Shown: positions 22,543 through 39,052, counted from the first letter of the stretch. The stretch is DNA of 50,542 bases from Methanocellales archaeon (GCA_028715545.1 JAQURP010000003.1:1-50542); one strand, 5' to 3'. The notes: a model not told the origin generated them from the sequence alone. Translations and numbers: made by a program.

Positions 22543-22563
22543 GTTGTGGGGAATATCAGAGAT

Positions 22564-23376
22564 ATGGATACTTTTAAAATAATCGAGGAAAAAGCGAAAA
22601 TAATCAGAAAACATGTAGTTAATATGATCTATGAGGCTAGTTCAGGGCATCCGGGGGGATCATTGTCCTGTGTCGACATTCTAACGACACTCTACTTCCA
22701 TACAATGTACCATAACCCTTTAGATCCTGAATGGGCAGATAGGGATCGCTTTATTTTGTCAAAAGGACATGCAGCACCTACTTTATATGCGATCTTGGCT
22801 GAGGCGGGTTACTTCCCTATCGAAAACTTGTCGTCATTGCGAAGGATTGGGAGCATGTTACAAGGGCATCCAAATAGCAAAGTTCCTGGCGTTGAAGTCT
22901 CCTCTGGATCGCTTGGGCAAGGTTTATCCATTGCAAGTGGTCTTGCACTGGCTGGCAAGCTGGACAAGAAGGCTTACCGGGTTTACACTCTGTTAGGTGA
23001 TGGTGAATGTGATGAAGGCCAAGTCTGGGAGGCGGCTATGCTCGCAGCACATTACAAATTAGATAACTTGGTTGCAATAGTGGACCGTAATGGTCTCCAA
23101 ATTGACGGATCGACCGAAAAGATAATGCGCTTGGAGCCGATAGCAGGAAAATGGGGGGCATTTGGCTGGCATGCTATCGAAATTGACGGAAACAAAATTG
23201 CGGAGATAACGGCAGCAATTGACGAGGCAAAGAGTATCAGGGGCAGGCCAACCGCAATTATAGCCCATACATTCAAAGGAAAGGGTATATCTTTCATGGA
23301 ATGGATTAATGCGTTCCACGGGAGGGCGTTAAGCAAAGAGGAAAGGGAAATTGCATTAAAAGAACTGAGTGAGTAA
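22564..23376 (+). CDS. tkt: Transketolase, N-terminal (ThDP-binding) subunit
   Basis: SSGHPGGSLSCVDILTTLYF, SKGHAAPTLYA and LGDGECDEGQVWEAAM (GDG ThDP motif). Split-gene organisation. ATG 22564 preferred over GTG 22546. Confidence 0.9.
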   Translation: MDTFKIIEEKAKIIRKHVVNMIYEASSGHPGGSLSCVDILTTLYFHTMYHNPLDPEWADRDRFILSKGHAAPTLYAILAEAGYFPIENLSSLRRIGSMLQGHPNSKVPGVEVSSGSLGQGLSIASGLALAGKLDKKAYRVYTLLGDGECDEGQVWEAAMLAAHYKLDNLVAIVDRNGLQIDGSTEKIMRLEPIAGKWGAFGWHAIEIDGNKIAEITAAIDEAKSIRGRPTAIIAHTFKGKGISFMEWINAFHGRALSKEEREIALKELSE

Positions 23377-23383
23377 TCTAATC

Positions 23384-24316
23384 ATGGAGCTGAAATCTAC
23401 CAAGGACGCTTATGGCGAGGCGTTATTGAAGTTTGGAGCTGATAACAGCATTGTGGTCTTAGATGCCGATCTATCAGTCTCGACACAAACAAATAAGTTT
23501 GCAAAGCAGTACCCGGAGCGCTTTTTCAATGTTGGCTGTGCCGAACAGAACTTGATAGGAGTCGCTGCTGGACTTGCAATTGCAGGAAAAACTTCATTTG
23601 CCAGCACCTATGCAATCTTCTCAAACAGAGCTTGGGAGCAAATAAGGAATACCGTAGCCTACGATAATCTAAATGTGAAAATTGCTGTTAGCCATGCTGG
23701 GTTAACTAACGGGCCTGATGGCGCCTCACATCAATCACTGGAAGATATAGCACTCATGCGAGTCATCCCGAACATGAGGGTTATTGTACCAGTTGACGCT
23801 GTAGAAACAGAAAAAGTGGTTAAAACAGAGATCTCTAACCCTGGACCTGCTTATATCAGGTTAAATCGCGTAAAGACACCCATTATTTTTGATGATAGCT
23901 ATGACTTCGTGTCTGGAAAGGCTGTTTTATTACACGAGGGCGTTGACCTGGCTATAATCTCTACTGGAACAATGGTATACGAAGCATTGGACGCATCCAA
24001 GAAGTTAAAAGAGGAGAACGTTAATGCGTGTGTACTTAACATACACACCATAAAGCCTATTGATAAGGATGCTATTATTAAAGTTGCGAAGGAGACAGGT
24101 GCTGTTATTACCGCTGAAGAGCACAATATTTATGGCGGATTAGGTGGAGCAGTTGCGGAGATATTGGCAGAAAATTATCCTGTTCCAGTAAAGATGATTG
24201 GCGTGAAAGACACCTTTGGGGAATCAGGCGAATATAGAGAATTATTAGAAAAATATTGTTTAACCTCGAATCACATAGTTAAATCAGCGAAGGCAATGTT
24301 GGAGAAGATGAGATGA
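23384..24316 (+). CDS. tkt: Transketolase, C-terminal (pyrimidine-binding) subunit
   Basis: [20 protein letters not shown] and [17 protein letters not shown] are typical of the Tkt C-terminal half. ATG 23384 preferred over the longest start at 23369. Confidence 0.9.
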
Positions 24317-24963
24317 AAATTTTTATTGATACCGCAAATGTAGAAGAGATCAGAAAGGCAACTAATTGGGGAGTTATCGACGGGGTAACCACAAATCCCT
24401 CACTGGTTGCAAAAGAAGGAAGAGAGTTTACAGAGCTTATTCGCGAAGTCATAAGTATAATTGATGGCCCCATAAGCGTGGAAGTAATCAGCACAGATGT
24501 AGAAGGCATGATTAAAGAAGCTGTTGAACTCTCAGAATGGTCATCAAACATAGTAGTGAAAATCCCGATGATTCCTGAGGGGCTCAAGGCGGTTAAAGTA
24601 CTCAGTGCAAAAAAGATTAAGACCAATGTAACACTGGTTTTCTCGGTTAATCAAGCATTATTGGCCGCTAAGGCTAGGGCAACCTATGTGAGTACTTTTG
24701 TCGGAAGATTGGATGATATAGGCCATGAAGGCATGCAAATTGTGCGCGAGATGGTAGAAATATTCAACATCTACGATTTTAGCACAGAGGTGATAGCCGC
24801 GAGCATTAGGCATCCAATGCACGTAATAGAAGCAGCTAAAGCTGGTGCGCATGTTGCAACCATTCCCTTTACGGTTATCGAAAAGATGTTCAAGCATCCG
24901 TTAACAGATATCGGATTGAAAAGATTCTTGGAAGATTGGAAGAAAGTGGAATCACGAGATTGA
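24313..24963 (+). CDS. tal: Transaldolase / fructose-6-phosphate aldolase family (short, type 3B)
   Basis: [31 protein letters not shown] and VKIP. 216 aa. ATGA overlap with the tkt C-terminal subunit gene. Confidence 0.9.
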
Positions 24964-25646
24964 CAGAACTCTTTTTCTTTTGCGGAACGAATGCACGGCT
25001 AAAAGAAGAGTTAAAGATTGTTCACGGATATCCGTGTGATCTGACGAAGATAGAAAAGCGCTATATAAACACAAAGAAGAATAGAGCAGTTTTTCTTGAT
25101 AGAGACGGCGTTATAACACAAGACCCTCCACACTTTGCACATCGAATAGACCAGCTCAAGTTGATTCCAAAATCCGCCGAGGCCATTAGGTTACTGAACG
25201 AAAATGGATTTAAAGTTGTTATAGTCTCAAATCAATCTGGGGTGGCAAGAGGATATTACCAGGAGAAGGATATTGGAATATTTAATCGCGCAATGGAGGA
25301 AGAATTAGAGAAGCATGGTGCATCTATTGATTCTATATACTATTGTCCTCATCATCCTGATGCGAAAGTAGAAGCGTATAGAGTAACTTGTGAATGTAGA
25401 AAACCCAAGCCAGGAATGTTGAAACGAGCAGAGAAGGACTTGAACCTGGATTTGAAACGATCATTTATGGTTGGTGATAGATTAATCGATGTAGAAGCAG
25501 GCCATAGTGCGGGTTGTAAAACAATCTTAGTGCTTACCTGTCATGGTAGTGATGAAGTGAAAAAGGTCAAGGAGAGTACTATAAAGCCCACATATATCTT
25601 AGAGGACTTATATAGTGCAAGTAAGATGATAAATGGTGTTAAATAA
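24936..25646 (+). CDS. gmhB: D,D-heptose 1,7-bisphosphate phosphatase (HAD, GmhB-like)
   Basis: [10 protein letters not shown] (DxDG HAD motif I), VSNQSG and the Zn-finger insert YYCPHHP...[10 protein letters not shown], then [10 protein letters not shown]. There is no in-frame ATG upstream of the HAD core. Likely TTG start at 24936 or 24960 (TTGA overlap with the tal stop). Confidence 0.8.
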
Positions 25647-25726: not shown

Positions 25727-26914
25727 ATGAAAACTATTTGCTTTGCCAAGTATGATGCAGGAATTCGAATATATAAACAAGCAAAGGCTCTAAAAGAGAC
25801 AAAAAAGTATAAATTGTTGTTAATTTGCGAAAAATGTGATTATAACTTGTTAAAAGAGGTGTTCGATGATATTATTTTTCTTGGTGTTTTAAAAAATAAA
25901 AATAATAATTTTCTTTCAAGAAGTTGCAATTATACAACAAATAAGCTGTTTAAATATGGCGAGAAAAAATTAAAAAGGGTTATTAATGGTATTGATGTTG
26001 ACCTATTTCACACTCATGCGGACTCAAATGATATTCCGAGAGGGATCATTGAGAATTCAGACAGACCGGTTATTTTTGACGAGCAGGATTTTTCCGGGAT
26101 CTCTTATGGATTAGAGAACTTGGATGAGAAGACAAAAGAAGATGAAAGATATTGTTTCGAGCATGCAGACGGAATTATTAGAAAAGGACCCCCTTTTGAG
26201 ATAGACTATTACAGGCAACATGGATATAACATAAATTGTCCTGAGCTTCAATGGCTGGATTACTGTGATGCAGACCTATTTGCTGACGTGAACCGTGCAA
26301 AATTATCGGATGAAGACGGTGATACGCATTTTGTTCTTGTTGGGTCCATTTCCCCCGACAAAAATTATCAAATTAAGTATTGTATTCCCTTGGGGAAAGA
26401 ATTAGCAAGACAAAAAATACATCTTCATATCTACCCCGCCCCACTTGAGTATAAGATATCGAAGGAATATCATGAATTGGCTAGAAAAGAGAAATATTTC
26501 CATTTTCATAGACCAGTCCCCTATAAGGAATTGAGTAACGAGATTGCCAAGTATGATTGGGGTATTGTAGATGCTTCCGTCACACTTCCTACGGATTTCG
26601 AAGGTGAACGTATGTCGAATGATAGGAAAAAGTCTGGAATAGGTAACAGACCGTTTACTTTTATGGAAGCGGGTATTCCATTCATTGTGAGTAAGATGTA
26701 CGTATTGTACAGGGATATTGCTGAGAGGAATAAGATAGGTTTTTCAATAGATAACACTGAATTAAGTAGATTAGGAGAACTAATAAAGGAATATGATTAT
26801 TTTGAATTGAAGGAGAATGTAAGAAAAGCTAGGGATACTTTGTCGTTAAGTAAGCAAGTAGAACATCTCGAAATGTTTTACCAAAAAGTTATTGATAATT
26901 ATAGGTATAATTGA
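25727..26914 (+). CDS. Hypothetical protein, possibly a divergent GT-B fold glycosyltransferase
   Basis: 395 aa and very AT/Lys-rich. Two-lobed layout with a C-terminal block (FHFHRPVPYKELSNEIAKYDWGI ... FTFMEAGIPFIVSK) reminiscent of the GT1/GT4 donor-binding region. Weak. Confidence 0.4.
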   Translation: MKTICFAKYDAGIRIYKQAKALKETKKYKLLLICEKCDYNLLKEVFDDIIFLGVLKNKNNNFLSRSCNYTTNKLFKYGEKKLKRVINGIDVDLFHTHADSNDIPRGIIENSDRPVIFDEQDFSGISYGLENLDEKTKEDERYCFEHADGIIRKGPPFEIDYYRQHGYNINCPELQWLDYCDADLFADVNRAKLSDEDGDTHFVLVGSISPDKNYQIKYCIPLGKELARQKIHLHIYPAPLEYKISKEYHELARKEKYFHFHRPVPYKELSNEIAKYDWGIVDASVTLPTDFEGERMSNDRKKSGIGNRPFTFMEAGIPFIVSKMYVLYRDIAERNKIGFSIDNTELSRLGELIKEYDYFELKENVRKARDTLSLSKQVEHLEMFYQKVIDNYRYN

Positions 26915-27054: not shown

Positions 27055-28572
27055 ATGGATCCTAAAATTTTGGAACTGGATCAATTGGCGGAAAAAGTTA
27101 GGCAGTTGAAACAAGAAAACAAGAAGATTGTGCATTGTCATGGAGTTTTTGACCTACTGCATGTGGGCCATATTCGCCACTTTAAAGCGGCGAAGCAATT
27201 TGGTGACGTACTGATTGTTACTGTAACGCAGGATAAATACGTAAATAAGGGCCCCTATAGGCCAGCATTTACCGAGAATATACGAACTGAGACCCTAGCT
27301 GCGTTAGATTGCGTTGATTACGTGGCGATTAACAAATGGCCAACTGCCGTTGAGACCATTGGGTTATTAAAGCCAGATATTTATACAAAGGGTATGGATT
27401 ACAGTGATCCTGCTAAAGATTATTCTGGAGGGATCCTTACAGAAAAAGAAGCAATTACCCAAGTTGGTGGAGAAATAATTTTTACCAATGAAATAACCTT
27501 TAGTTCTTCAAACCTGATAAACAGATATTTACATATATTTCCAAAAGAGGTAAATGACTATATAATCGATTTTTCTAAAAAATATTCTCAAGAGGAGATT
27601 ATCAAGTATTTGGACGGGATAAATAATTTAAAGATATTAGTAATTGGGGAAGCTATCATTGATGAATACCAGTATGGTGAATCAATAGGCAAAGCTGGAA
27701 AAGAACCCATAATTGCTTTAAAGTATCTTAAAACCGAGAAATTCGCTGGTGGTATTCTTGCTATAGCGAATCAAATAGCAAATTTCTGTGATAATGTGGA
27801 CATGTTCACTCTGTTGGGCGAGGTAGACTCTCAAGAGGCTTTTATCTCTCAAAACCTAAACAAAAAAATAAATAAGTTATTCCACTATAGAAAAGACTCC
27901 CCCACCCTAGTTAAAAGGCGATTCCTTGAAACGAGTCCGTTGTCAAAACTTTTAGAATTTTATATATTCAACGACGATAGCTTGGAACCAGAGCTGAGCA
28001 AAGAGATACAAGCACACTTGGAAAAGATACTCCCAAGCTATGATTTGGTTATTGTGGCAGATTTTGGTCACGAATTGTTCAACAAAGAGATAATAAATTT
28101 AATTACGAAAAAATCTAGATTTATTGCGGTTAATACACAGTCCAATGCAGGTAATATGGGTTATAACACGATTTCAAAATATCCAAGAGCAGATTACATT
28201 TGCATAGACGAGCCTGAGATTCGGTTAGACAGTAAAGATAAGAGTAGTGAGGTGACTGAACTCATTCCGAAGGTGGCGAAAAAATTGTCTTGTAAAAAGA
28301 TGGTTCTAACTCGTGGAAGAAATGGTTGTATAGCTTACTCTAACAATAATATTACTAGTATCCCTGCATTTTCAGAAGAGGTTTTGGATACAATGGGTGC
28401 TGGTGACGCCCTCCTCTCTATAACATCACCACTGGTTGCAAATGATGTTCCAATGGAGATAGTGGGCTTTGTAGGTAATGCAGTAGGAGCCATGGCATGC
28501 ATGATTATCGGAAATAAACAGTCGATTGATAAAGTGTCTTTATATAAGTTTATAACCTCCTTGATGAAGTAA
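27055..28572 (+). CDS. Bifunctional cytidylyltransferase-like nucleotidyltransferase (RfaE domain II-like) + PfkB sugar kinase (RfaE domain I-like), in reversed domain order
   Basis: N-terminus has HCHGVFDLLHVGHIRHF (HxGH nucleotidyltransferase motif). C-terminus has ILVIGEAIIDEYQYG ... LDTMGAGDALLS (PfkB DTxGAGD motif). 505 aa. Confidence 0.8.
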   Translation: MDPKILELDQLAEKVRQLKQENKKIVHCHGVFDLLHVGHIRHFKAAKQFGDVLIVTVTQDKYVNKGPYRPAFTENIRTETLAALDCVDYVAINKWPTAVETIGLLKPDIYTKGMDYSDPAKDYSGGILTEKEAITQVGGEIIFTNEITFSSSNLINRYLHIFPKEVNDYIIDFSKKYSQEEIIKYLDGINNLKILVIGEAIIDEYQYGESIGKAGKEPIIALKYLKTEKFAGGILAIANQIANFCDNVDMFTLLGEVDSQEAFISQNLNKKINKLFHYRKDSPTLVKRRFLETSPLSKLLEFYIFNDDSLEPELSKEIQAHLEKILPSYDLVIVADFGHELFNKEIINLITKKSRFIAVNTQSNAGNMGYNTISKYPRADYICIDEPEIRLDSKDKSSEVTELIPKVAKKLSCKKMVLTRGRNGCIAYSNNNITSIPAFSEEVLDTMGAGDALLSITSPLVANDVPMEIVGFVGNAVGAMACMIIGNKQSIDKVSLYKFITSLMK

Positions 28573-29577
28573 ATGATGAGCACTAAAAAAGCCCTAGTCA
28601 CGGGTGGAGCAGGGTTTATTGGCTCCCATCTGGTGGATAGACTCTTGGAAGATGGTCATGAAGTCGTGATTCTCGACAACTTTTCGAGTGGGCGCATGGA
28701 AAACTTGGCCCAGTCCAAAAAGAGCGAAAAGTTAACAGTGGTGGAAATTGACGTTTCCAGCTTCCAAGACATTAAAGATTATTTTAAAGGTGTGACTTGG
28801 GTCTTTCATCTCGCTGCGCTTGCTGATATCGTTCCATCCGTGCAGAATCCATTAAAATACCATAGAGCGAATGTGGATGGAACAGTTTCAGTCCTTGAAA
28901 GTGCAAGGAAAATGGGTGTGAAAAGATTCATATATGCGGCCTCGTCCTCATGTTATGGGATCCCAGATGTTTACCCAACTCCAGAGAATGCCGATATTAG
29001 GCCCAAGTATCCCTATGCATTGACAAAGTATATCGGCGAGCAATATGTCCTTCACTGGGGAAAGCTTTATGATTTGCCTGTCGTCTCGTTAAGATTATTC
29101 AACGTGTATGGCCCCAGAGCAAGGACTACTGGAACTTATGGTGCAGTTTTTGGCGTATTCTTGGCACAGAAATTGGCTGGAAAACCGTTTACTGTTGTAG
29201 GCGATGGCACACAGACAAGGGATTTTACGTTTGTTACTGACGTTGCTGACGCGTTTATTTTTACTGCTGAATCTGAGTTCCACGATGTGGTCTTTAATGT
29301 TGGATCTGGCGAGCACCATAGTGTTAACGAATTAGTGGAGCTGCTGGGAGGGGGCAAAAAAGTATATATCCCAAAAAGACCTGGAGAGCCTGACCACACA
29401 TTTGCGGATATCTCAAAGATAAAAGAAAGATTGGGGTGGAAGCCAAAGGTTGGTTTCAAAGAGGGTGTTAAAATAATGCTCGAGAATATGGATTACTGGA
29501 GAGATGCCCCTGTGTGGGAGAAGGACTCGATATCAGAAGCTACGACGGATTGGTTCAAATACCTGTCAAAGAAATGA
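28573..29577 (+). CDS. NAD-dependent nucleotide-sugar epimerase/dehydratase (GalE/WbpP-like extended SDR)
   Basis: [29 protein letters not shown] (YxxxK) and GDGTQTRDFTFV. Starts immediately after the stop of the upstream fusion gene. Confidence 0.8.
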   Translation: MMSTKKALVTGGAGFIGSHLVDRLLEDGHEVVILDNFSSGRMENLAQSKKSEKLTVVEIDVSSFQDIKDYFKGVTWVFHLAALADIVPSVQNPLKYHRANVDGTVSVLESARKMGVKRFIYAASSSCYGIPDVYPTPENADIRPKYPYALTKYIGEQYVLHWGKLYDLPVVSLRLFNVYGPRARTTGTYGAVFGVFLAQKLAGKPFTVVGDGTQTRDFTFVTDVADAFIFTAESEFHDVVFNVGSGEHHSVNELVELLGGGKKVYIPKRPGEPDHTFADISKIKERLGWKPKVGFKEGVKIMLENMDYWRDAPVWEKDSISEATTDWFKYLSKK

Positions 29578-29589
29578 GGAGGTGAAAAA

Positions 29590-30597
29590 ATGTCCAACTT
29601 AAAATTTAAAAACGTTCTAATAATAGGTGGTGCTGGTTATGTCGGGAGCGCTTTAGTGCCAAGTATGTTGAAAAAGGGCTATAACGTGACCGTTTATGAT
29701 CTATACCTTTACGGAGATGTCTTCTCAAATTTAGAAGACATCCCAAACCTTACACAAGTAAAGGCCGATATCCGAAATAGAGAAAAGCTGATTGAGGCTT
29801 CAAAGGATATCGACGCGATAGTACACCTCGCATGCATCTCCAACGATCCGAGCTATGAGCTTGACCCCGCTCTGGGTAAGTCTATAAACTATGATGCCTT
29901 TTTCAACGTTCTTGAAGCGGCGGAAAAGAACAACATCAAACGGTTCATATATGCTAGTTCATCGAGCATCTATGGCATAAAAGAGGAAAGAGACATAAGG
30001 GAAGATGCGTCCTGCGAGCCCTTGACGGATTATTCAAAATACAAGTTGGAGTGCGAGAAGGAGTTATTGGAGTTTGGGAAGGTGCACGAGATGGAGCACG
30101 TGATAGTGAGGCCCGCAACTGTATGCGGGTACACGCCCAGACTGCGGCTTGACTTAGTTGTGAACATCCTGACGATCAACGCACTGGTCAATAGGAAGAT
30201 AAAAATTTTTGGTGGGAACCAACTAAGGCCGAACATCCATATCAAAGACATAGTTAGGGTGTATGAGCTGCTTCTTTCTGCACCAAAAGAGAAAATCAAT
30301 GGTCAGATATTCAATGCAGGCTATCAAAATTATTCCGTAGAAGAACTTGCTAAAAAAGTGAAAAGCGTCATAGGGGACCCAAAAATCGAATTGGAGTCTG
30401 TACCCTCGGATGATATTCGATCCTATCATATCAATTCCGATAAGATACGGGATGTGTTGGGATTTGAACCAAGATATACAATTGAAGATGCTGTACGAAG
30501 TCTTGTAGATGCTTATGGGAAGGGCTTGATTGAAGATGGTTTAAAGAATCCACTTTATTACAATATCAAGATGATGCAAAAAGTCAACTTAAGATGA
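29590..30597 (+). CDS. NAD-dependent epimerase/dehydratase family SDR
   Basis: IIGGAGYVGSAL, ASSSSIYG, YSKYK (YxxxK). Strong GGAGGTGA RBS upstream. Its stop overlaps the start of the E1 alpha gene (ATGA). Confidence 0.75.
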   Translation: MSNLKFKNVLIIGGAGYVGSALVPSMLKKGYNVTVYDLYLYGDVFSNLEDIPNLTQVKADIRNREKLIEASKDIDAIVHLACISNDPSYELDPALGKSINYDAFFNVLEAAEKNNIKRFIYASSSSIYGIKEERDIREDASCEPLTDYSKYKLECEKELLEFGKVHEMEHVIVRPATVCGYTPRLRLDLVVNILTINALVNRKIKIFGGNQLRPNIHIKDIVRVYELLLSAPKEKINGQIFNAGYQNYSVEELAKKVKSVIGDPKIELESVPSDDIRSYHINSDKIRDVLGFEPRYTIEDAVRSLVDAYGKGLIEDGLKNPLYYNIKMMQKVNLR

Positions 30598-31580
30598 AAA
30601 TGAACAGCAAAACATTTCGTTCGTTCTTATATAAAATGCTGAGGATTCGAATGGTTGAAGAGAAGATAGTAGAGTTGTACCCAGAGCAAGAGATAAGATG
30701 CCCCACACACCTATCTATAGGTGAAGAAGCAACTGCAGTCGGCGTGTGCGAGAATTTAAGACAAGACGACATGGTATTTGGCTATCATCGTAGTCATGCA
30801 CATTACTTGGCAAAAGGCGGCAACCTCAAAGCATTTATGGCTGAACTGTATGGTAAAGCCACTGGGTGTTCGAGAGGCAAAGGTGGTTCCATGCATCTCA
30901 TAGATATTTCTGTCAATTTTTTGGGTACTACACCGATTCTAGGGGGGACCGTCCCACTAGCAGTTGGCGCAGCATTATCTTCACAGATGCAGGGTAAGGA
31001 CAATATTGCTGTTGCTTTCTTTGGAGATGCTGCTGCAGAGGAAGGAATAATTCACGAGAGCCTCAATTTTGCCTCTTTGAAAAAGTTGCCCGTTTTATTT
31101 GTCTGTGAAAATAATCTGTACTCGGTTCAAACTCCTCTTTCAGCTCGACAACCAGAAAGGGAAATCTATTTACTCGGCAAAGCGCATGCAGTGGATTCTT
31201 ACTTGGCGGATGGTTACGACGCACTAAAGGTGTACGAGATAGCCAAAAAGGCCGTTGAAAAAATAAGGGCTGGCAATGGACCGATATTTTTGGAATTATT
31301 AACCTATCGATGGCGTGAACATTGTGGCCCAAACTATGATTTTGAACTCGGATATAGGAACGAGGTCGAGTTCCTGAAATGGAAGGAGAAGGATCCCATA
31401 AAAAAGCTCAAAGAAGAGATGTTAGAGGCAAATATCCTATCAAATGAAGAGTTTGAAGGGATGAGAGAAGAAATAAATAGGGAAATAGAAGACGCTGTAT
31501 CCTTCGCAAAGGATAGTCCATTCCCGGAAAAAGACGAATTATATAGCAACGTATACTCAGAGCAGGGACATGAAAAGTAA
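30594..31580 (+). CDS. ThDP-dependent 2-oxoacid dehydrogenase E1 component, alpha-subunit-like
   Basis: FFGDAAAEEGIIHESLNFASLKKLPVLFVCENNLYS (GDx(n)NN ThDP-binding motif), HLSIGEEA and YRWREHCGP. 328 aa. Confidence 0.85.
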   Translation: MKMNSKTFRSFLYKMLRIRMVEEKIVELYPEQEIRCPTHLSIGEEATAVGVCENLRQDDMVFGYHRSHAHYLAKGGNLKAFMAELYGKATGCSRGKGGSMHLIDISVNFLGTTPILGGTVPLAVGAALSSQMQGKDNIAVAFFGDAAAEEGIIHESLNFASLKKLPVLFVCENNLYSVQTPLSARQPEREIYLLGKAHAVDSYLADGYDALKVYEIAKKAVEKIRAGNGPIFLELLTYRWREHCGPNYDFELGYRNEVEFLKWKEKDPIKKLKEEMLEANILSNEEFEGMREEINREIEDAVSFAKDSPFPEKDELYSNVYSEQGHEK

Positions 31581-32649
31581 TAGAATAATTAGCTACATGG
31601 AAGCTGTAAGGGAAGGCATTGATTTATGCTTGGAGAAATACCCCTCGGTATTCATCATAGGTCCTGGGGTACCTGATCCAAAAGGTGTCTTTGGAACAAC
31701 GTTGAACCTTGTCGACAAATATGGACCCGGCAGGGTTTTGGACATGCCCCTGTCTGAAAACGGAATTACTGGTGTTTGTATTGGGGCTGCTTTGACTGGG
31801 ATGAGGCCAATTATGGTGCATCAGAGGATGGATTTCTCCCTCCTGGCAATTGACGAACTAATAAATAATGCCGCAAAATGGCATTACATGTTCGGTGGAT
31901 GGTGTGAAGTACCGCTTGTGATTCGGCTTATAATCGGTCGCGGATGGGGGCAGGGCGCACAGCACTCACAAAACCTCCAGGCGTTGTACGCACATATTCC
32001 TGGCTTGAAAGTCGTTATGCCCACCACTCCTTATGATGTCAAAGGCCTGTTAATTTCGAGCATAGAGGACAACAATCCCATAATATTTATCGAACACCGC
32101 TGGTTGTACAATATGTGTGAACACGTACCTGAAGCGATGTACCGAGTGCCGATTGGTAAATCCAAAATTGTCAGAGAAGGTGAAGATATAACGATTGCCT
32201 CCACATCGTATATGACTATAGAGTCCATTAAAGCTTCAAGAATCATTGAGAATTTAGGAATCTCTCCGGAAATAGTTGATATTCGAACAATAAAACCGCT
32301 TGACACTAATTTGATTATTAAATCTGTAAAAAAGACAGGCAGATTACTAGTCATAGATTCCGGATGGAAAAGCGGGGGAATTGCAGGCGAAGTTATAGCT
32401 AGTGTGGTTGAGGAGGCTTTTGATTCCTTCAAATCTAAACCTCAACGGATTACTCTACCAGACATCCCTACACCCACCAGTCATTCTCTAACAAGGCATT
32501 ATTATCCGACCTATGTAGATATTGCAAATAAGATAGCGACTATGGCGGGAATGGGGACGGAAAAAGCTGAGTTGAGAAAAATTTTAAAATCCAAAAAATA
32601 TGACACCCCATCGGATATACCCCACCTCTCTTTCACAGGACCGTTTTAA
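31570..32649 (+). CDS. ThDP-dependent 2-oxoacid dehydrogenase E1 component, beta-subunit-like
   Basis: ISYMEAVREGIDLCL ... RVLDMPLSENGITGVCIGAALTGMRPI ... IRTIKPLD is the transketolase-like Pyr plus C-terminal domain pattern. 11-nt overlap with the alpha gene. Confidence 0.85.
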   Translation: MKSNRIISYMEAVREGIDLCLEKYPSVFIIGPGVPDPKGVFGTTLNLVDKYGPGRVLDMPLSENGITGVCIGAALTGMRPIMVHQRMDFSLLAIDELINNAAKWHYMFGGWCEVPLVIRLIIGRGWGQGAQHSQNLQALYAHIPGLKVVMPTTPYDVKGLLISSIEDNNPIIFIEHRWLYNMCEHVPEAMYRVPIGKSKIVREGEDITIASTSYMTIESIKASRIIENLGISPEIVDIRTIKPLDTNLIIKSVKKTGRLLVIDSGWKSGGIAGEVIASVVEEAFDSFKSKPQRITLPDIPTPTSHSLTRHYYPTYVDIANKIATMAGMGTEKAELRKILKSKKYDTPSDIPHLSFTGPF

Positions 32650-32682
32650 TAGTTTTATATAGAGTGACGACCTAATCTTGGA

Positions 32683-32910
32683 GTGATAAAAGTGATTTTA
32701 AGCTATGGGGACTTTTTGCAAGCTTCACACGAAGGGTTTGCTGAACTGGGACTAGAAGAAAAGCTGAGGACTACAAATAAAGCTCTATACAGGGCGTCGA
32801 TATGGTATGCCAAACGCAGTGGAAGTATAGTCCATCGAATGCTTGTGGAAAAGCTTTCAGTGCTTGTTGGAAAGTTGAAAGAAAGAGACGAAAGGTATGA
32901 GGATATTTAA
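32683..32910 (+). CDS. Small hypothetical ORF (upstream member of the duplicated leader pair)
   Basis: 75 aa with a GTG start. Its C-terminal KLKERDERYEDI matches KFKRDERHEDI, encoded at about 21300-21335 upstream of the heptose module. Coding status uncertain. Confidence 0.3.
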   Translation: MIKVILSYGDFLQASHEGFAELGLEEKLRTTNKALYRASIWYAKRSGSIVHRMLVEKLSVLVGKLKERDERYEDI

Positions 32911-33028
32911 AAGGGGCGTTAAGAAAGCGGTCGAAACACTTGGCAAAAGCGAAGCTGAGGGGACATCCATATGGGTGCCTCAGTTGAAGCAGAATCTAAA
33001 AGATTCCGACTATGTCTTCTGGCTAGGT
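32881..33028 (+). repeat. Copy 2 of the duplicated leader segment (paralog of 21306-21453)
   Basis: Contains an intact 47-codon ORF (32897-33040: MRIFKRGVKKAVETLGKSEAEGTSIWVPQLKQNLKDSDYVFWLGMVW*). About 40% aa identity and roughly 70-75% nt identity over the first 60 nt to copy 1, judged by eye. Confidence 0.7.
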
Positions 33029-33088
33029 ATGGTGTGGTGAAATATGGTGGTTCTTTTGAAGCAGTATCGATAATTTTAGGTGTAGAAG

Positions 33089-34078
33089 ATGAATAAAATA
33101 GCAGTGATAGGTAGCAATTCTTTTTCTGGAAGCCATTTCATAGATATGCTTCTGGAAGAGAGGGATTCAGAAGTTCTTGGACTTAGTAGGTCTCCTGAAA
33201 AAAGCGCCTTGTTTCTTCCATACAAGAAGCAAGACACTTCCCGATTTAGATTCTTCCAAATGGACTTGAACAGGGATATTGATAAAATAATGGACCTATT
33301 TGATATTGAAAAGCCAGAGATGATTGTTAATTTTGCTGCACAGAGCGAGGTAGGTCCAAGTTGGGATCATCCTGAACAGTGGTTCCGTACAAATTGCCTT
33401 GGAATAGTTAATCTTACCAATAAACTAAAGGATAGAGAGTATTTCAAGAGATATGTTCACATCTCATCACCCGAAGTCTACGGTACTTGTCTAGGTATAG
33501 TCAAGGAAGACGCCCCATTTAACCCAAGCACACCCTATGCCGCGTCAAAAGCCGCTGGAGACATGTTTATACAGGTGTTAATCAAGAATTTTAATTTCCC
33601 TGCAATACTCATAAGGTCCACTAACGTTTATGGCCCCGGCCAGCAATTATTCAAAATCATTCCTAGGTCCATAATCTATATAAAAATGGGGAAAAAGATA
33701 GCACTGCATGGCGATGGACTCGCGGTAAAATCCTATATCCACATCCGGGACACCTCTCATGGCGAACTGGCGGCTATGGAGAAAGGGCGTCTAGGAAGCA
33801 TCTATCATCTCTCACCAGAGAGTGGATATGCGGTGCGCGATGTTGTGCGCAAGATCTGTGACCTTATGGGTCGTGACTTCGAGGCATCTACGGTCTCAGT
33901 AGGCGAGCGATTGGGTCAGGATGCTGCGTATGTGATTGATTCTTCGAGAGCACGCGATGAACTTGGCTGGTACCCAAAGATTACGCTGGACGAGGGGCTG
34001 GCTGATGTGATTGACTGGGTGGAGGACTATTGGGAGCAGATTCAAAAAGAGCCTCTGGACTATATACATAAGCCGTAA
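33089..34078 (+). CDS. NDP-hexose 4,6-dehydratase-like extended SDR
   Basis: IAVIGSNSFSGSHF (variant Rossmann motif), ISSPEVYG, STPYAASKAAGD (RmlB-like YxxxK block) and TNVYGPGQ. Confidence 0.7.
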   Translation: MNKIAVIGSNSFSGSHFIDMLLEERDSEVLGLSRSPEKSALFLPYKKQDTSRFRFFQMDLNRDIDKIMDLFDIEKPEMIVNFAAQSEVGPSWDHPEQWFRTNCLGIVNLTNKLKDREYFKRYVHISSPEVYGTCLGIVKEDAPFNPSTPYAASKAAGDMFIQVLIKNFNFPAILIRSTNVYGPGQQLFKIIPRSIIYIKMGKKIALHGDGLAVKSYIHIRDTSHGELAAMEKGRLGSIYHLSPESGYAVRDVVRKICDLMGRDFEASTVSVGERLGQDAAYVIDSSRARDELGWYPKITLDEGLADVIDWVEDYWEQIQKEPLDYIHKP

Positions 34079-34954: not shown

Positions 34955-36616
34955 ATGGCATTATTAAATCGTGACGCAGGTGAAACGGAAAATAACATTA
35001 AGGTACTTTTGGTGACTCCAATAAGTGATCTTAGCTTTATGAACCTCACATGTGCACCACCAATTGGGCTGTATCGTGTCAGGAACTATCTGATATCCAA
35101 GGGCATATATTGTGATATTCTAGATTTAGATCTGGATCGTACACTTGAGAATAAATATTTACGTCTGGTTGAGCAAGGTGTCTATGATGTGATCGGTGTC
35201 AGTGTAAGCCATCAGAATATACTTTCAGACCTCAAGACATTGTGGAGGTTTCGAGAGGCTAGTAGAAAGAGTGGTAAGAGGTGCGTATTTATCTCTGGGG
35301 GACAAGAAGCAAGCCTCAATTATACGCAGTGGTTGGAAGCTGGCATTGATCTCATTTTCTTAGGTTACCCTGAAAAAAGACTATATGAATTTATTTCACG
35401 TTTAGATCGTCAAAGAGATGATGATATAGGGGAAATAGTCAGGGATATTCCTGGAGTTGCATACAAAGAGAAAGATGAACATTTTGTCTTTCGCCCAGCA
35501 AATATTTTAACTCCAAAGGAATTTAGAGAATTATCATTCGACAATGTCAAGAATTTAGATATCCCATTTGATGATTATTGGGCCGCTGTACGTAAAAGTG
35601 CGGATAATCTTGATTTTCATGGTAACATATTCATTGTTGAAACAGTGAGACTTTACACATCAAGCCATTGTGCTCATAATTGCGGCTTTTGTACCTCGCA
35701 GGTTTTTCTTCCTGTATGTCAAAATAAGAAATTTCCAGTAATTATGCTCTCAGCTTCTGAGGTCTATGAGTTAGTCCTACATCACATTAGAAGATATGGT
35801 GCAAAAGGCTTTTTGTTCTGTGATGATGATTTTTTAGTCGGAAATAAGGGCGGGTTAGACCGTGCAGTTGAATTCTGTAGATTAATAGTCGAGGCAAAGA
35901 ATAACGGTTTGATTCCTGAAGATACAACGTTTAATTGCCAAGCCAGAATATCCGACTTCTTGATAACTCAAAAAAAGCTAAATTTGGAGCTTATGGATGC
36001 ACTACATCAAGCTGGATTTCATGGTATAGGGGTAGGTGTAGAGACCTTTTCGGACAGCTTATTAAAATGCCCCTCGGTCAATAAAATAGGTGTTACTGAA
36101 ACGGATTGCTACAATGTTTTAGATGCTTTGTTACAGAAAAAACTGGTTCCGACGATGAATATTATAATTGGGATACCTGAGAGCACCTGCGATGATGTCA
36201 TCCACTCAATGCAGATGGCAGTAAAATACCTCCTAAAGGGCTGCCAAGTTGCGGTCACCATAGTGCTGTTCTCATTCCCTGGTGCACCAATTTATAATTC
36301 GAATTCCTATGACTTTAGCACAATAGAATGGGTAAATCCTGAAACGAACAAAGTTTTGATTATTAAAGACCATGTCCTACCAAATGAGCCCAAGATAGCC
36401 AATATACTCGAGAAGATACAAGACGCATCCGCCGAAGAACTTCGTAAATTCAATATGCAATATCCTTGGCTGGAAGATTCAGCAATTCCAAAGCCACTTC
36501 AAGGCTTGGCTATCTTTATAAGTGTTGCAAAACTTTTAGGTAGACAGGACGTTGCAGAAGAATTCATAGAAGTTGCACACAATATTATCAAAGAGGAGGA
36601 GCTAAAAATTGGATGA
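34955..36616 (+). CDS. B12-binding-domain radical SAM enzyme (class B, methyltransferase-like)
   Basis: N-terminal Rossmann-like block (IKVLLVTP ... PPIGLYRVRNYLISKGIYCDILDLD ... VIGVSV). Radical SAM cluster motif CAHNCGFC (CxxxCxxC). 553 aa. Confidence 0.8.
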   Translation: MALLNRDAGETENNIKVLLVTPISDLSFMNLTCAPPIGLYRVRNYLISKGIYCDILDLDLDRTLENKYLRLVEQGVYDVIGVSVSHQNILSDLKTLWRFREASRKSGKRCVFISGGQEASLNYTQWLEAGIDLIFLGYPEKRLYEFISRLDRQRDDDIGEIVRDIPGVAYKEKDEHFVFRPANILTPKEFRELSFDNVKNLDIPFDDYWAAVRKSADNLDFHGNIFIVETVRLYTSSHCAHNCGFCTSQVFLPVCQNKKFPVIMLSASEVYELVLHHIRRYGAKGFLFCDDDFLVGNKGGLDRAVEFCRLIVEAKNNGLIPEDTTFNCQARISDFLITQKKLNLELMDALHQAGFHGIGVGVETFSDSLLKCPSVNKIGVTETDCYNVLDALLQKKLVPTMNIIIGIPESTCDDVIHSMQMAVKYLLKGCQVAVTIVLFSFPGAPIYNSNSYDFSTIEWVNPETNKVLIIKDHVLPNEPKIANILEKIQDASAEELRKFNMQYPWLEDSAIPKPLQGLAIFISVAKLLGRQDVAEEFIEVAHNIIKEEELKIG

Positions 36617-37823
36617 ATCGAAACTTGCCATCCATGGTGGGCCCCCAATAAGGAGCAAACCGCTCCCCTATAGGAAGCTTTTTGGAAAAAAAGAATTAGA
36701 AGCGGTTACGAAAGTTTTCGAAGATAGTTGGCGAGAGGGGGTGGATTTTGGTTTCCAGGGAAAATATGAGAAACTGTATACCGACAAATTCTGTGAGTTT
36801 CAAGGAGGGGGGTTCGCTGATGGTGTAAGCTCTGGAACGGCAGCCGTCTATCTTGCATTAAAGGTTCTCTATCTTGAGCCAGGGAGTGACGTTATTACCT
36901 CTCCTGTCACAAATCCAGGTAGTATCTCCTCCATCATATTACAAGGTATGAACATCGTTGTTGCGGATTCTCAACCAAATACCTTTCTTTTGGGTCCAGA
37001 TGAGTTCGAGGCAGCCTTGACGCCTAATACCCGTGCTGCGGTTTTAACTCATTCTGGTGGGTATCCCATTGATATGAATCCAATAGTGGAAATAGCTGAG
37101 TCCAAGGGAATCAAAATAATCGAAGATGGTTCACAGGCCCACGGAGCTCTCTACAAAGGAAAGAGAGTTGGACGTTTCGGAGACATTGCCGCTTTTTCTA
37201 CCATGTTTTCCAAGACTCTCGCAACTGGTGGTTGCGGAGGTCTTGTCTATACGGAGAACGAAGAATACTATTGGCCTATTCGCTCGCATGCGGATAGGGG
37301 TAAACCCTTTCACATCTCTGACTTTAGCCAGAGGAGGTTTGATGAATACCTGTTCCCTGCGTTGAATTTTAATCTCGACGAGCTTTCTTGTGCCATTGGT
37401 CTTTCAACTCTTTCTCGGTTACAGAAAACGATCGATAAACGTTTTGAAATAACCAGAAAAATTGATGAAGCTCTTGATGCATCGTCAGTCGTATCCCCCG
37501 CCTTGAAGCCCCAATATGACTGTAAACCCTCAATATTTTTCCATACTGTTATGGTTGACGTTGACAAGCTTAAGGTCTCAAAAAAGGAATTTGCGGAGGC
37601 CGTGGCTGCTGAAGGCATTTGGGTTAATCCTGATTATCGTGAAGTTGTCTCTGAGTGGAAGTGGCTCCAGAGTTACTTGAAGAGAGGAACACATACCCCA
37701 AATGCCTCGGATTTCCGGGATAGGACCTTTAACATCCTCCTTAATGAACGATTTTCAGACGAGGACATCGAGGATGTGATCGCGAGTATTCTGAAAGTAG
37801 AATCTGTTCTCGCAAAGACATAA
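36609..37823 (+). CDS. DegT/DnrJ/EryC1-family PLP-dependent sugar aminotransferase
   Basis: LAIHGGPP start, IEDGSQAHGA, and FSTMFSKTLATGGCGG with a Lys retained in the PLP-binding region. TTG start at 36609 overlaps the upstream stop by 8 nt. Confidence 0.85.
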   Translation: MDESKLAIHGGPPIRSKPLPYRKLFGKKELEAVTKVFEDSWREGVDFGFQGKYEKLYTDKFCEFQGGGFADGVSSGTAAVYLALKVLYLEPGSDVITSPVTNPGSISSIILQGMNIVVADSQPNTFLLGPDEFEAALTPNTRAAVLTHSGGYPIDMNPIVEIAESKGIKIIEDGSQAHGALYKGKRVGRFGDIAAFSTMFSKTLATGGCGGLVYTENEEYYWPIRSHADRGKPFHISDFSQRRFDEYLFPALNFNLDELSCAIGLSTLSRLQKTIDKRFEITRKIDEALDASSVVSPALKPQYDCKPSIFFHTVMVDVDKLKVSKKEFAEAVAAEGIWVNPDYREVVSEWKWLQSYLKRGTHTPNASDFRDRTFNILLNERFSDEDIEDVIASILKVESVLAKT

Positions 37824-37915: not shown

Positions 37916-39052
37916 GTGCATATTCCTCTGCATATATTAAGAATTATTGATCTGGGGAGTGAAAAAACGAGTAAAGAAGTTTTCCATAATAAGCATGAGG
38001 CTTTTACTGAAGAAGCGTTTAACACACCAGGCATGCTTCCAGACAGATATGTTTTTGTTCTCACCAATCTTTGTAATCTGAAATGCGGTTTTTGTTATCA
38101 GAAAAAAAATTCAAAAAAAGATGCCATGAATGCAGAAGAATGGATAAATTTAGCAAAACAGCTCCCTAGTTACGCTCGAGTTACATTTACAGGGGGTGAG
38201 CCCTTCGTCTTTCCAAGCTTTAAAGACGTTTTCTCATACGTTGCGGAGAGATTTAATTGTAACATCATTTCAAATGGGATATTATTAACTGAGGAAAAAA
38301 TCGATTATATCCTTTCTTTTCCAAACTTCAAAGTGCTTTCTTTATCAATAGACGATGTTGGAAATGCCATTAGAGGAGTCACACCCGCACAATGGGGTCA
38401 TCTAAAAAAGATGATGAAATACTTCACCAAAAAAAGAGATGCGATTAATCCCGATTGCATTCTGGATGTTAAGACACTGGTTTTAGATGAAAATGCTGAG
38501 GATATTTTTAAAATTTACAAATATTTCGTAGAAGAGTTAAATGTCGATACACATGTATTTCAATTTTTAAAAGGTTCATCAATCCAACATGCTGATTCCA
38601 TGTTCGAGTTTAAAGATCTCTTAAAAAAGTCTCCCTCTTCGATCTATAAAAAATTTGACATAATCAAGGAGCAGTTAGAGTTAGTGCGGCAGTATAACGT
38701 GCGTAAAGGGAAAGTCTCTTTCATACATCCCAAGGTAGATTCTTTAGTCTCGGAAAATACATTATCCAACATTGATCTCCTTAATAACCCAGATCACGTG
38801 AAGGAGTTGTACTTGCCATGCAAATTCCCTTGGTCAAGCGTTCACATCAACTGTGATGGAACTCTCTTTCCTTGTTTGGCAGTCTCCATGGGGAATGTCA
38901 AAAAGTCCCCCCTATCCGATATAATCAACAGTGAAGAGTTTTATGAATTCAGGGAACTTATCAGGAGAGAAGGCACGATTGCGGCGTGTAATCGCTGTGG
39001 ATGGTTACGACCAAATCAAGTAAATCTAAATAATCCTGAGGTTTATTCATGA
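37916..39052 (+). CDS. Radical SAM enzyme with C-terminal Cys-rich SPASM/twitch-like domain
   Basis: LTNLCNLKCGFCYQ (CxxxCxxC), GGEPF, and the C-terminal CKFPWSSVHINCDGTLFPC ... ACNRCGW. Start uncertain (GTG 37916 or ATG 38033). Confidence 0.8.
   Translation: MHIPLHILRIIDLGSEKTSKEVFHNKHEAFTEEAFNTPGMLPDRYVFVLTNLCNLKCGFCYQKKNSKKDAMNAEEWINLAKQLPSYARVTFTGGEPFVFPSFKDVFSYVAERFNCNIISNGILLTEEKIDYILSFPNFKVLSLSIDDVGNAIRGVTPAQWGHLKKMMKYFTKKRDAINPDCILDVKTLVLDENAEDIFKIYKYFVEELNVDTHVFQFLKGSSIQHADSMFEFKDLLKKSPSSIYKKFDIIKEQLELVRQYNVRKGKVSFIHPKVDSLVSENTLSNIDLLNNPDHVKELYLPCKFPWSSVHINCDGTLFPCLAVSMGNVKKSPLSDIINSEEFYEFRELIRREGTIAACNRCGWLRPNQVNLNNPEVYS

Follow-up and report, generated by a model that had tools for sequence, protein, structure and literature searches.

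A predicted keto-sugar-branching E1 alpha/beta pair in a surface-glycan locus of a Methanocellales archaeon

A stretch of 50,542 nucleotides from a Methanocellales archaeon (GCA_028715545.1 JAQURP010000003.1:1-50542), referred to here as the window, contains two overlapping genes for proteins resembling the alpha and beta subunits of thiamine diphosphate (ThDP)-dependent E1 enzymes, at 30594-31580 (+ strand, 328 amino acids) and 31570-32649 (+ strand, 359 amino acids). Sequence comparisons indicate that the pair is probably a heteromeric ThDP carboligase of the alphaKADH2 type (AviB1/B2, Pau11/12 and KbDH-alpha/beta) that would branch a keto-sugar, and not the E1 component of a dehydrogenase complex. 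The observations behind this assignment are the domain architecture, the catalytic residues, the absence of lipoyl acyltransferase (E2) and dihydrolipoamide dehydrogenase (E3) genes, synteny, the membership of Pau12 in the same clade and a set of signature residues. From these we infer pyruvate as the donor, a heptose-derived 4- or 3-keto sugar, bound to a nucleoside diphosphate (NDP) or to a glycan, as the acceptor, and, with the same reserve, the position of the branch and a role for a C-terminal tail on the beta subunit. Enzymes of this kind are already known; the archaeal and multi-phylum surface-glycan setting is not described in the literature that was found. A first-pass annotation of the window had placed the two genes at these positions, which the open reading frames (ORFs) and their Pfam domains bear out, and had suggested acyloin-type branching of a sugar, a predicted function that now draws support from clade membership, signatures and synteny.

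The alpha-like protein, which corresponds to the ThDP/Mg-binding PP domain, matches E1_dh (PF00676, 3e-70) over its full length, and the beta-like protein carries the Pyr domain (Transket_pyr, PF02779, 2e-34) followed by the C-terminal domain (Transketolase_C, PF02780, 1e-31). Two adjacent co-directional genes, E1 alpha (PP) and E1 beta (Pyr plus C-terminal), are the layout of the alphaKADH2 type. The best Protein Data Bank (PDB) matches were human pyruvate dehydrogenase (PDH) E1 alpha (4e-58) and Geobacillus PDH E1 beta (3e-70). Neither subunit reached the curated NCBIfam scores that define PDH E1, with 333.9 bits for the alpha subunit against TIGR03182 (cut-off 393.85) and 316.5 bits for the beta subunit against NF006667 (cut-off 321). 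The ThDP/Mg motif of the alpha subunit is intact (G144-D145-A146 ... N173-N174-L-Y176), and catalytic H243 of the alpha subunit, presumably the counterpart of human alpha-His263, is present together with E63 and H132 of the beta subunit. The GD[GA]...NN.Y motif and these three residues were invariant across all the sugar-linked and E2-linked clades examined. Because every residue needed for ThDP chemistry is present, the pair is predicted to be a catalytically competent ThDP enzyme of the E1 fold, most likely an alpha2beta2 assembly by homology to known E1 enzymes.

Searches for the missing partners covered the window, its continuation and related loci. Pfam scans of every ORF of at least 100 amino acids identified no 2-oxoacid_dh, Biotin_lipoyl, E3_binding or Pyr_redox_2 domain in the window, and tblastn of five bona fide E2 proteins and one E3 protein against it returned only a 23-residue chance match (E = 0.96), so that the earlier statement that the window lacks E2 and E3 stands. 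None of the unannotated window ORFs resembled a lipoyl carrier: orf25727 has a faint glycosyltransferase (GT)-like match, orf10004 encodes a multi-pass membrane protein, and the others are small and soluble. E2/E3 genes lying just outside comparable clusters, which had been named as evidence that would speak against branching, were not found in the 10 kb beyond the right edge of the window on the contig of a sister assembly, where more glycan genes lie, nor in the Woesearchaeota loci that carry the pair; within flanks of up to 10 kb on each side, E2 was missing from all 62 loci that belong to the clade of the window. E2 was found in 17 more distant loci, mostly directly 3' of E1 beta, whose alpha subunits were at most 47% identical to that of the window; the remaining loci of the survey had none. 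Loci were labelled for E2 and E3 by probes, the true E2/E3 genes having first been identified by Pfam in a few of them.

To place the pair among its relatives, 87 related loci were surveyed, and a scan limited to one genome per species gave 80 loci of 41-58% identity from very diverse organisms. Homologues of the alpha subunit number in the thousands; the best 120 were 58-79% identical and all derived from metagenomes or metagenome-assembled genomes (MAGs), their named sources being Nanoarchaeota, Woesearchaeota, "archaeon", Chloroflexota and Syntrophomonadaceae. The window proteins have entries in NCBI nr, where one cluster mate of at least 90% identity carries the label "Methanocellales archaeon"; the nearest E1 homologues with a name come from Nanoarchaeota and Woesearchaeota MAGs, and an uncultured archaeon is the likely source. 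Contigs of the closest homologues (67-79% identity) retain a cassette of HldE-like gene, short-chain dehydrogenase/reductase (SDR), E1 alpha, E1 beta and SDR, lack E2 and E3, and add a methyltransferase, a split transketolase, a B12-radical SAM enzyme, a zinc-dependent alcohol dehydrogenase (Zn-ADH) and a DegT aminotransferase. In three of the surveyed loci (L056, L072 and L086), the E1 alpha ORF is about 700-816 amino acids long and no separate adjacent beta ORF was called. An alpha/beta fusion is possible there, as judged from ORF calls that an assembly or frameshift artefact may also explain; L072 carries E2, and L056 and L086 lie in sugar contexts.

Neighbouring ORFs were labelled by BLAST against the window proteins, and co-occurrence within 10 kb of the pair was counted in 62 loci of the window's clade (the sugar clade) and 21 loci of the E2 clade. 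Homologues of the SDR directly upstream of the pair in the window (SDR_29590) were present in 33 of 62 sugar-clade loci and 0 of 21 E2-clade loci, and this was also the commonest labelled gene immediately upstream of the pair. Similar contrasts were seen for DegT (32/62 versus 0/21), the HldE-like protein (28/62 versus 0/21), the methyltransferase MT_41558 and the downstream SDR_33089 (each 24/62 versus 0/21) and the GmhA-like SIS isomerase (23/62 versus 0/21). The second upstream SDR (SDR_28573) occurred in 21 of 62 and 1 of 21 loci, and the Zn-ADH in 15 of 62 and 5 of 21. The first-pass annotation had asked whether the two upstream SDRs accompany the pair in other genomes, and these counts give an affirmative answer. 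Immediately 3' of E1 beta lay DegT in 12 sugar-clade loci and an SDR_33089-type gene in 9 loci; frequent orders were methyltransferase-E1 alpha-E1 beta or E1 beta-SDR-methyltransferase-Zn-ADH, and elsewhere two DegT genes were found downstream. The linkage to sugar genes (SDR, HldE-like, SIS, DegT and methyltransferase) recurs in archaea and about 17 bacterial phyla, and operon linkage, whose loss elsewhere had been listed as a point against a sugar role, is therefore conserved.

Two loci annotated as Woesearchaeota place all four genes of a heptose set (an SIS isomerase, a PfkB kinase, a HAD phosphatase and a cytidylyltransferase-like nucleotidyltransferase) and a family 2 GT (GT2) beside the E1 pair, with a nucleotidyltransferase, an SDR, a DegT aminotransferase and a GT-C protein beyond it. 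On four Woesearchaeota contigs (L092-L095), genes annotated as alpha-ketoacid or pyruvate dehydrogenase E1 sit in heptose/glycan clusters without E2 or E3. Three Streptomyces loci also belonged to the sugar clade; in them the pair lies among the deoxysugar genes of natural-product clusters, comprising NDP-sugar synthase, 4,6-dehydratase, 3,5-epimerase, 2,3-dehydratase, a DesVIII-like P450, an EryCIII-like GT and EF-G.

Neighbour-joining trees with 100 bootstraps were constructed for both subunits. The window pair and all sugar-context loci were separated from all E2-context loci and from human and Geobacillus PDH with bootstrap values of 92/100 (alpha) and 100/100 (beta), so that the grouping with housekeeping acetoin or pyruvate dehydrogenases that might have been expected of an ordinary E1 was not observed, in line with the scores below the curated cut-offs. 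A Streptomyces beta query recovered Pau12 (so named in UniRef; Streptomyces albidoflavus, 345 amino acids), which is 87% identical to that query; when Pau12 was added to the beta tree, the split between sugar and E2 sequences remained at 100/100 with Pau12 on the side of the window. Pairwise identity was dropped as a discriminator, given values of 41-45% to both Streptomyces and E2-linked proteins. As raw identity fails to separate the groups, the assignment rests on tree topology together with signature residues.

These signatures are found in both subunits. At the catalytic histidine the alpha clade has the form H-[CV]-G-P (H243-C-G245-P246 in the window), in which G245 is present in 59 of 59 sugar-clade sequences and P246 in 53 of 59, against 0 of 22 E2-linked sequences for each. 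For the beta subunit, G33 (51/54), T43 (48/54) and H84 (48/54) are likewise absent from all 20 E2-linked sequences, and R86, which with H84 forms an H84-Q-R86 motif, is present in 54 of 54 sugar-clade sequences and 1 of 20 E2-linked ones. G33, T43, N64, H84 and R86 (window numbering) are all shared with Pau12. A further feature is a clade-specific C-terminal tail on the beta subunit, which in the window comprises residues 319-359 (32524-32646, + strand) and ends in D349-I-P-H-L-S-F355-T-G357-P358-F359. The median tail is 36.5 residues long in sugar-clade sequences, compared with 9.5 in E2-linked ones, and a C-terminal F.GP[FYW] was found in 44 of 54 sugar-clade sequences versus 0 of 18 E2-linked ones. 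All 120 of the closest beta homologues end in F-x-G-P-F, with D(-11), F(-5), G(-3), P(-2) and F(-1) invariant and P(-9) conserved in 99%; the tail-end motif also occurs in 117 of 120 actinomycete-type homologues, including Pau12 (GFQGPF). Ten outer lineages of the sugar clade lack the tail and retain the other signatures and the sugar context. The alpha H-x-G-P, the beta G33, H84 and R86 and the C-terminal F-x-G-P-F thus offer a simple means of separating predicted sugar-branching enzymes from dehydrogenase E1 subunits.

In Geobacillus E1, the beta C-terminus is part of the site that binds the peripheral-subunit-binding domain (PSBD) of E2. In the window this end of the protein carries the extension of about 35 residues with its invariant terminus, which may lie in the E2-binding site or extend as far as the funnel of the active site. 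In an AlphaFold2 model of the beta monomer, the core had a mean predicted local distance difference test (pLDDT) score of 86.9, whereas the tail scored 54-62 and was extended, so that the model does not place it.

Known E1-like enzymes acting on sugars provide the closest functional precedents. Knockout of pau11 abolishes paulomycin production and complementation restores it; Pau11 and Pau12 are 37% and 34% identical to AviB1 and AviB2, and both the AviB and the Pau proteins have been proposed to act after glycosyl transfer (PMC4425429). Under the names Plm8/Plm9, the same enzymes were shown by combinatorial biosynthesis to install a two-carbon chain that stems from pyruvate on 2,6-dideoxy- and 2,3,6-trideoxyhexoses (PMC4802897). 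A 2025 review groups such E1-like sugar-branching enzymes as "alphaKADH2", a group that includes the aldgamycin, kosinostatin, trioxacarcin, everninomicin and pillaromycin pathways and about 120 biosynthetic gene clusters, all of actinomycete secondary metabolism, and for which there are no experimental structures (PMC12247030). Its only member characterised in vitro is KbDH-alpha/beta of kibdelomycin, which couples pyruvate to ketone sugar analogues; branching in the group takes place at C3 or C4, and subsequent tailoring of the branch ketone is by reduction, methylation, oxidation or, as in kibdelomycin, transamination (PMC12247030). No paper tying E1 alpha/beta pairs to heptose-type or surface-glycan clusters was found in a search that did not take in the Krug 2024 survey.

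Pau11/Pau12 (= Plm8/Plm9; Streptomyces paulus and S. albidoflavus J1074) resemble the window pair in being an E1 pair without E2 or E3 among sugar genes. Pau12 (P0265) shares with the window beta subunit a clade supported at 100/100, the same signature residues and the same F-x-G-P-F end, but is only about 42% identical to it, has a tail of 29 residues compared with 41 and lacks the D-[VI]-P-D box. The settings differ as well. Pau11/12 belong to secondary metabolism, where their substrate is a 2,6-dideoxyhexose and their neighbours are dTDP-sugar genes (2,3-dehydratase and 3,5-epimerase), whereas the window has heptose-type and surface-glycan export genes. AviB1/AviB2 (AAK83190 and AAK83191) of avilamycin, likened to the window by description and not by sequence, are a PDH-E1-like pair proposed to place a pyruvate-derived two-carbon branch on a 4-keto sugar (the eurekanate branch). 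They work with the non-haem iron enzyme AviO2, of which no counterpart was found in the window. The first-pass annotation had named AviB1/B2 as its precedent, and the choice proved apt: Pau12, the partner of knockout-validated Pau11, falls in the same clade as the window with every beta signature. Its further suggestion concerned an NDP-linked acceptor; branching of a keto-sugar is supported, and since AviB and Pau are proposed to act post-transfer, the acceptor need not be an NDP-sugar. The reduction, methylation and transamination of the branch in KbDH and other alphaKADH2 pathways match the Zn-ADH, methyltransferase and DegT genes of the window. These pathways, likened to the window by description, belong to actinomycete secondary-metabolite clusters, whereas the window is an archaeal-type surface-glycan locus.

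Functional analogues of a second kind are YerE, ErwE, MMAR_2332 and MygE, which, in the making of cell-surface glycans, add an acyl anion equivalent to an NDP-4-keto sugar with the help of ThDP, NAD(P)H-dependent reduction coming next. They differ from the window pair in being single-chain members of the decarboxylase/acetolactate-synthase-like superfamily, and YerE is in addition a flavoprotein. Yersiniose, erwiniose, caryophyllose and gastriose of lipopolysaccharide (LPS) and lipooligosaccharide (LOS) are assigned to such YerE-like enzymes (PMC9306805, PMC12247030). By Pfam, none of the window ORFs of at least 100 amino acids was assigned to the TPP_enzyme_N/M/C (YerE-like) families. An E1 alpha/beta lead for mycobacterial LOS (caryophyllose) was dropped, the literature assigning this step to the YerE-like MMAR_2332.

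The proposed mechanism draws on the chemistry of E1 enzymes and on the gene content of the window. ThDP bound at the alpha/beta interface would be activated by beta-Glu63 and attack pyruvate, and decarboxylation would give the hydroxyethyl-ThDP enamine, which would then add to the ring carbonyl of a keto-sugar, instead of a lipoyl arm, to leave a C-acetyl branch on a tertiary alcohol. Upstream of this step, a ketose phosphate supplied by transketolase and transaldolase/FSA would be isomerised by the GmhA-like SIS protein and phosphorylated by the PfkB kinase; the HAD enzyme would then remove a phosphate, and the cytidylyltransferase-like domain of the HldE-like protein would activate the product to an NDP-heptose or similar sugar, the precursor probably being an NDP-heptose. 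A flanking SDR would convert the NDP-sugar into the keto-sugar acceptor. Once the branch is in place, its carbonyl would undergo reduction by the Zn-ADH or an SDR, transamination by DegT and/or methylation, and the branched sugar would be built into a surface glycan through the GT2, family 4 GT (GT4), Wzx and GT-C gene products. The beta tail, D-[VI]-P-x-x-x-F-x-G-P-F-COOH, might stand in for E2 docking, or it might lie over the sugar acceptor and shut the active-site funnel.

Several points weigh against this assignment. The window proteins are as close to an E2-linked bathyarchaeal pair (45% identity for alpha and 43% for beta) as to the Streptomyces proteins (about 44% and 41%). The trees are neighbour-joining and not maximum likelihood, the E2-linked sample consists of the 17-21 loci nearest to the window, and the AviB1/B2, KbDH and aldgarose-pathway sequences were not part of the comparison; nor was a sequence of Pau11, so that Streptomyces proxies alone stand for the validated pair in the alpha comparison. 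Biochemical and genetic data for the clade come solely from actinomycetes. The search of the source genome for E2 and E3 was limited to the contig, and a distant E2/E3 is formally possible. Finally, every heptose-pathway gene scores below its equivalog cut-off, and the sugar could for that reason be other than a heptose.

Among the alternatives, the one that retains most weight keeps the fold and the sugar pathway and changes the substrates: the donor would be an acetoin-type compound, hydroxypyruvate or a 2-oxoacid with a longer or hydroxylated chain, the acceptor would be at the glycan level, or branching would take place at C3. YerE-type LPS enzymes use functionalised C4-C8 2-oxoacid donors that are formed by aldolases (PMC9306805), and the window encodes both a transaldolase/FSA-type aldolase and transketolase; a related enzyme, acetoin:DCPIP oxidoreductase, takes acetoin-type donors, and alphaKADH2 enzymes branch at either C3 or C4 (PMC12247030). 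A glycan-level acceptor would agree with the post-glycosyl-transfer action proposed for AviB and Pau (PMC4425429). Against these, alphaKADH2 enzymes appear to be specialised for pyruvate-derived C2 branches and KbDH accepted pyruvate only (PMC12247030), and the transketolase and transaldolase of the window are also explained by a supply of sedoheptulose-7-P beside the SIS, kinase and phosphatase genes. On balance, this set of variants is considered unlikely, though it deserves to be kept in view.

It is very unlikely that the pair is a conventional pyruvate, acetoin or branched-chain dehydrogenase E1 with E2 and E3 encoded at a distance, its place in the sugar cluster being fortuitous or serving to provide acetyl-CoA with which sugars are acetylated. 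Such an enzyme would explain why the top matches in databases, like the names given in public annotation, are PDH, acetoin or alpha-ketoacid dehydrogenase E1, and why all dehydrogenase E1 catalytic residues, including both active-site histidines, are retained; the E2/E3 search in the source genome covered the contig only. The window pair indeed has the fold, domain order and ThDP-binding and catalytic residues of the PDH, branched-chain and acetoin E1 enzymes (alpha2beta2), but differs from them in having no E2/E3 partner, scores under the PDH E1 cut-offs, a clade of its own, the H-[CV]-G-P loop, the beta H-Q-R motif and the tail of about 35 residues. The bootstrap support of 92-100 sets it apart from every E2-linked E1, linkage to sugar genes has recurred independently among archaea and in some 17 phyla of bacteria, none of the 62 loci containing E2, the loop after the catalytic histidine and the beta C-terminus are altered systematically, and the clade holds the partner of a genetically validated sugar-branching enzyme.

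ThDP-dependent carboligations are reversible in principle. That the pair cleaves C-C bonds or merely decarboxylates, with a sugar-derived 2-oxoacid as substrate or by an acetoin-like cleavage of an alpha-hydroxyketone sugar that would shorten or rearrange the chain, is likewise very unlikely: E1-type enzymes do decarboxylate 2-oxoacids and acetoin dehydrogenase E1 splits an alpha-hydroxyketone (PMC12247030), but the validated members of the clade build branches and do not remove them, and Pfam found neither a NeuB/KdsA-type ulosonic-acid synthase nor a phosphoenolpyruvate (PEP) mutase among the window ORFs, so that no sugar 2-oxoacid or phosphonopyruvate substrate is evident. A phosphonate pathway, in which the pair would be a split phosphonopyruvate decarboxylase, was rejected because the PEP mutase domain is absent from the window ORFs.

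If the pair is a keto-sugar-branching carboligase, E1-type chemistry would extend from actinomycete secondary metabolism to surface glycans in this and about 60 related loci, and these loci would point to branched higher-carbon sugars of a class not yet described, probably derived from heptoses. A wider proposal can be put forward only tentatively, with somewhat less than even expectation: that E1-type carboligases are a widespread, hitherto unrecognised route by which archaea and some 17 phyla of bacteria furnish their surface glycans with C-branched, heptose-derived higher sugars, that the tail is functional and that many annotated E1 subunits are glycan-tailoring enzymes. Carriers under this proposal would include DPANN archaea, Methanocellales-like archaea, SAR11, Colwellia, Alteromonas, Omnitrophota and Patescibacteria. 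Among the surveyed loci, cultured carriers are Colwellia sp. RE-S-Sl-9 (L021), Alteromonas sp. KUL42 (L073) and Polynucleobacter sp. IMCC 30228 (L066), and L045 lies on a Pelagibacter chromosome. Genes of the clade are uniformly annotated in public records as pyruvate, acetoin or alpha-ketoacid dehydrogenase subunits, and, if the wider proposal holds, E1 genes used as evidence of pyruvate oxidation in many uncultured genomes would instead encode glycan-tailoring enzymes. Metabolic reconstructions of reduced-genome archaea and Woesearchaeota cite "pyruvate dehydrogenase" as a source of acetyl-CoA (PMC5994134, PMC8421398), statements that may or may not refer to genes of this clade. For biocatalysis, in which ketone-accepting ThDP enzymes are sought for the preparation of chiral tertiary alcohols, the clade would provide hundreds of diverse candidates.

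The genes around the pair are those expected of a keto-sugar-forming and tailoring pathway, in the order HldE-like, SDR, SDR, E1 alpha, E1 beta and SDR, with the Zn-ADH, methyltransferase and DegT genes nearby. From 27055 to 32649, the HldE-like, two SDR and two E1 genes are separated by 0, 12, -4 (or +2) and -11 nucleotides. The two values for the third spacing reflect the start of E1 alpha. The ORF begins with an ATG at 30594 that overlaps the stop codon of the upstream SDR (29590-30597; TGA at 30595-30597), as the first-pass annotation had described in terms of an ATGA overlap. The same frame has a further ATG at 30600, and close homologues have N-termini (MNNKTL.. and MENKTS..) that match MNSKTF.. 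read from that codon, so that the alpha subunit may instead begin 2 nucleotides past the SDR stop, outside the overlap, and comprise 326 amino acids. The overlap of the two ORFs is real, while the homologues favour a start beyond it. The 11-nucleotide overlap of beta with alpha, also noted in the first-pass annotation, is present, with the beta ATG at 31570 and the alpha stop at 31578-31580. With either start of alpha, the genes are tightly packed. The database gene call for E1 alpha, of 314 amino acids, begins at an internal Met (about residue 15; 30594-30640 region), and exact look-ups of this 314-residue version and of the last gene of the window gave no hit.

The first gene of this array (27055-28572, +) encodes an HldE-like bifunctional protein with CTP_transf_like and PfkB domains, which scores below the cut-offs of the rfaE domain I/II and HldE models and is likely a sugar-phosphate kinase and NDP-sugar-forming enzyme. 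Its 505 residues place the cytidylyltransferase-like domain at the N-terminus and PfkB at the C-terminus, the reverse of the E. coli-type HldE. An orthologue of 506 amino acids in the archaeal locus L005 has the same domain arrangement and the same gene order, and in the Woesearchaeota loci the two functions are on separate genes. Next comes an SDR (28573-29577, +) identified by Pfam/NCBIfam as a GalE/TviC/LegB-like epimerase or oxidase type, with an SSS...YxxxK triad and no dehydratase motif. The SDR directly before the pair (29590-30597, +) is a candidate keto-sugar-forming oxidoreductase of the Epimerase family (5e-43), with an SSS...Y148xxxK triad and no TDE dehydratase motif. Downstream, a third SDR (33089-34078, +) resembles dTDP-glucose 4,6-dehydratase (TIGR01181, 4e-64, below the cut-off) and has an SPEVYG motif where RmlB-type dehydratases presumably have TDEVYG.

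Between E1 beta and this third SDR lies a 440-nucleotide gap (32650-33088), among the largest in the tightly packed array. Its ORFs are all short, with products of 75 (32683-32910) and 47 amino acids (32897-33040), both basic, and neither an Rfam match nor a tRNA was found in it; tRNA and Rfam scans of the whole window likewise gave no matches. The gap might hold a small gene or the remains of one, or it might serve as an internal promoter or regulatory region.

Other genes on the + strand fit the supply and tailoring of the sugar. A PfkB kinase, a split transketolase (N and C genes) and a transaldolase/FSA were identified by Pfam at 21502-24963; this block, which probably supplies the ketose phosphate, adjoins the E1 pair in locus L001 with 48-72% identity. 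It is followed by a HAD phosphatase (24936-25646, +; Hydrolase_like/HAD), a candidate for the GmhB-like step, whose counterpart in the Woesearchaeota loci accompanies the SIS, PfkB and nucleotidyltransferase genes beside the E1 pair. The GmhA-like SIS isomerase (sedoheptulose-7-P isomerase type) lies further away at 43452-44063 (+), with SIS_2 and gmhA model matches (2e-31) below the cut-offs. Candidates for tailoring of the branch, both identified by Pfam, are a class-I methyltransferase (41558-42217, +) and the Zn-ADH (42284-43327, +). A DegT-family aminotransferase (36609-37823, +; PF01041, 2e-64) could transaminate the branch carbonyl or a ring keto group.

The split transketolase of the window (22546-24316) stands beside the PfkB and transaldolase/FSA genes. 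A more divergent split transketolase (about 40% and 27-36% identity) occurs among methyltransferase/Zn-ADH tailoring genes in L005 (14647-16374), L013, L022, L024, L029 and L044. For miharamycin and amipurimycin, split-gene transketolases are the proposed source of hydroxyacetyl branches on keto-sugars, reports being confined to Streptomyces. By analogy with these proposals, a second ThDP-dependent branching step by a split transketolase is possible besides the supply of sedoheptulose-7-P. Three radical-SAM enzymes (34955-36616, 37916-39052 and 39924-41051), one B12-binding and two with SPASM domains, have homologues that flank the E1 pair in L001, and the trio suggests unusual C-methylation, epimerisation or dehydration on the same sugar. 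Two proteins were assigned to no Pfam or NCBIfam family. One (25727-26914), a soluble protein of 395 amino acids encoded between the HAD and HldE-like genes, has a faint GT-B match in the PDB (E = 0.007), and the other (10004-11434; 476 amino acids), with at least six hydrophobic segments, may be a polymerase or GT-C-like membrane protein.

As judged from the Pfam scan, the window as a whole is a single large glycan locus of 50 kb. Its sugar enzymes include nucleotidyltransferases, UDP-sugar dehydrogenases, eight SDRs and two DegT aminotransferases, along with the three radical-SAM enzymes and several methyltransferases, and its assembly and export genes encode GT2 and GT4 glycosyltransferases, a Wzx-type flippase and two GT-C (PMT_2) proteins. 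Base composition is mosaic, with a GC content of about 0.41-0.44 at 21-25 and 28-38 kb and of 0.32-0.36 at 8-21 and 39-42 kb, and this, together with the spread over contigs described next, would fit either an island of glycan genes that is modular and possibly exchanged or differences between assemblies. Among loci L088, L089 and L090, the left 10 kb of the window is present on separate MAG contigs (GCA_028694255.1 and GCA_028688335.1), and proteins encoded from 11.5 kb on are recorded on an 83.7-kb contig of GCA_028706905.1, the stretch compared being about 37-50 kb.

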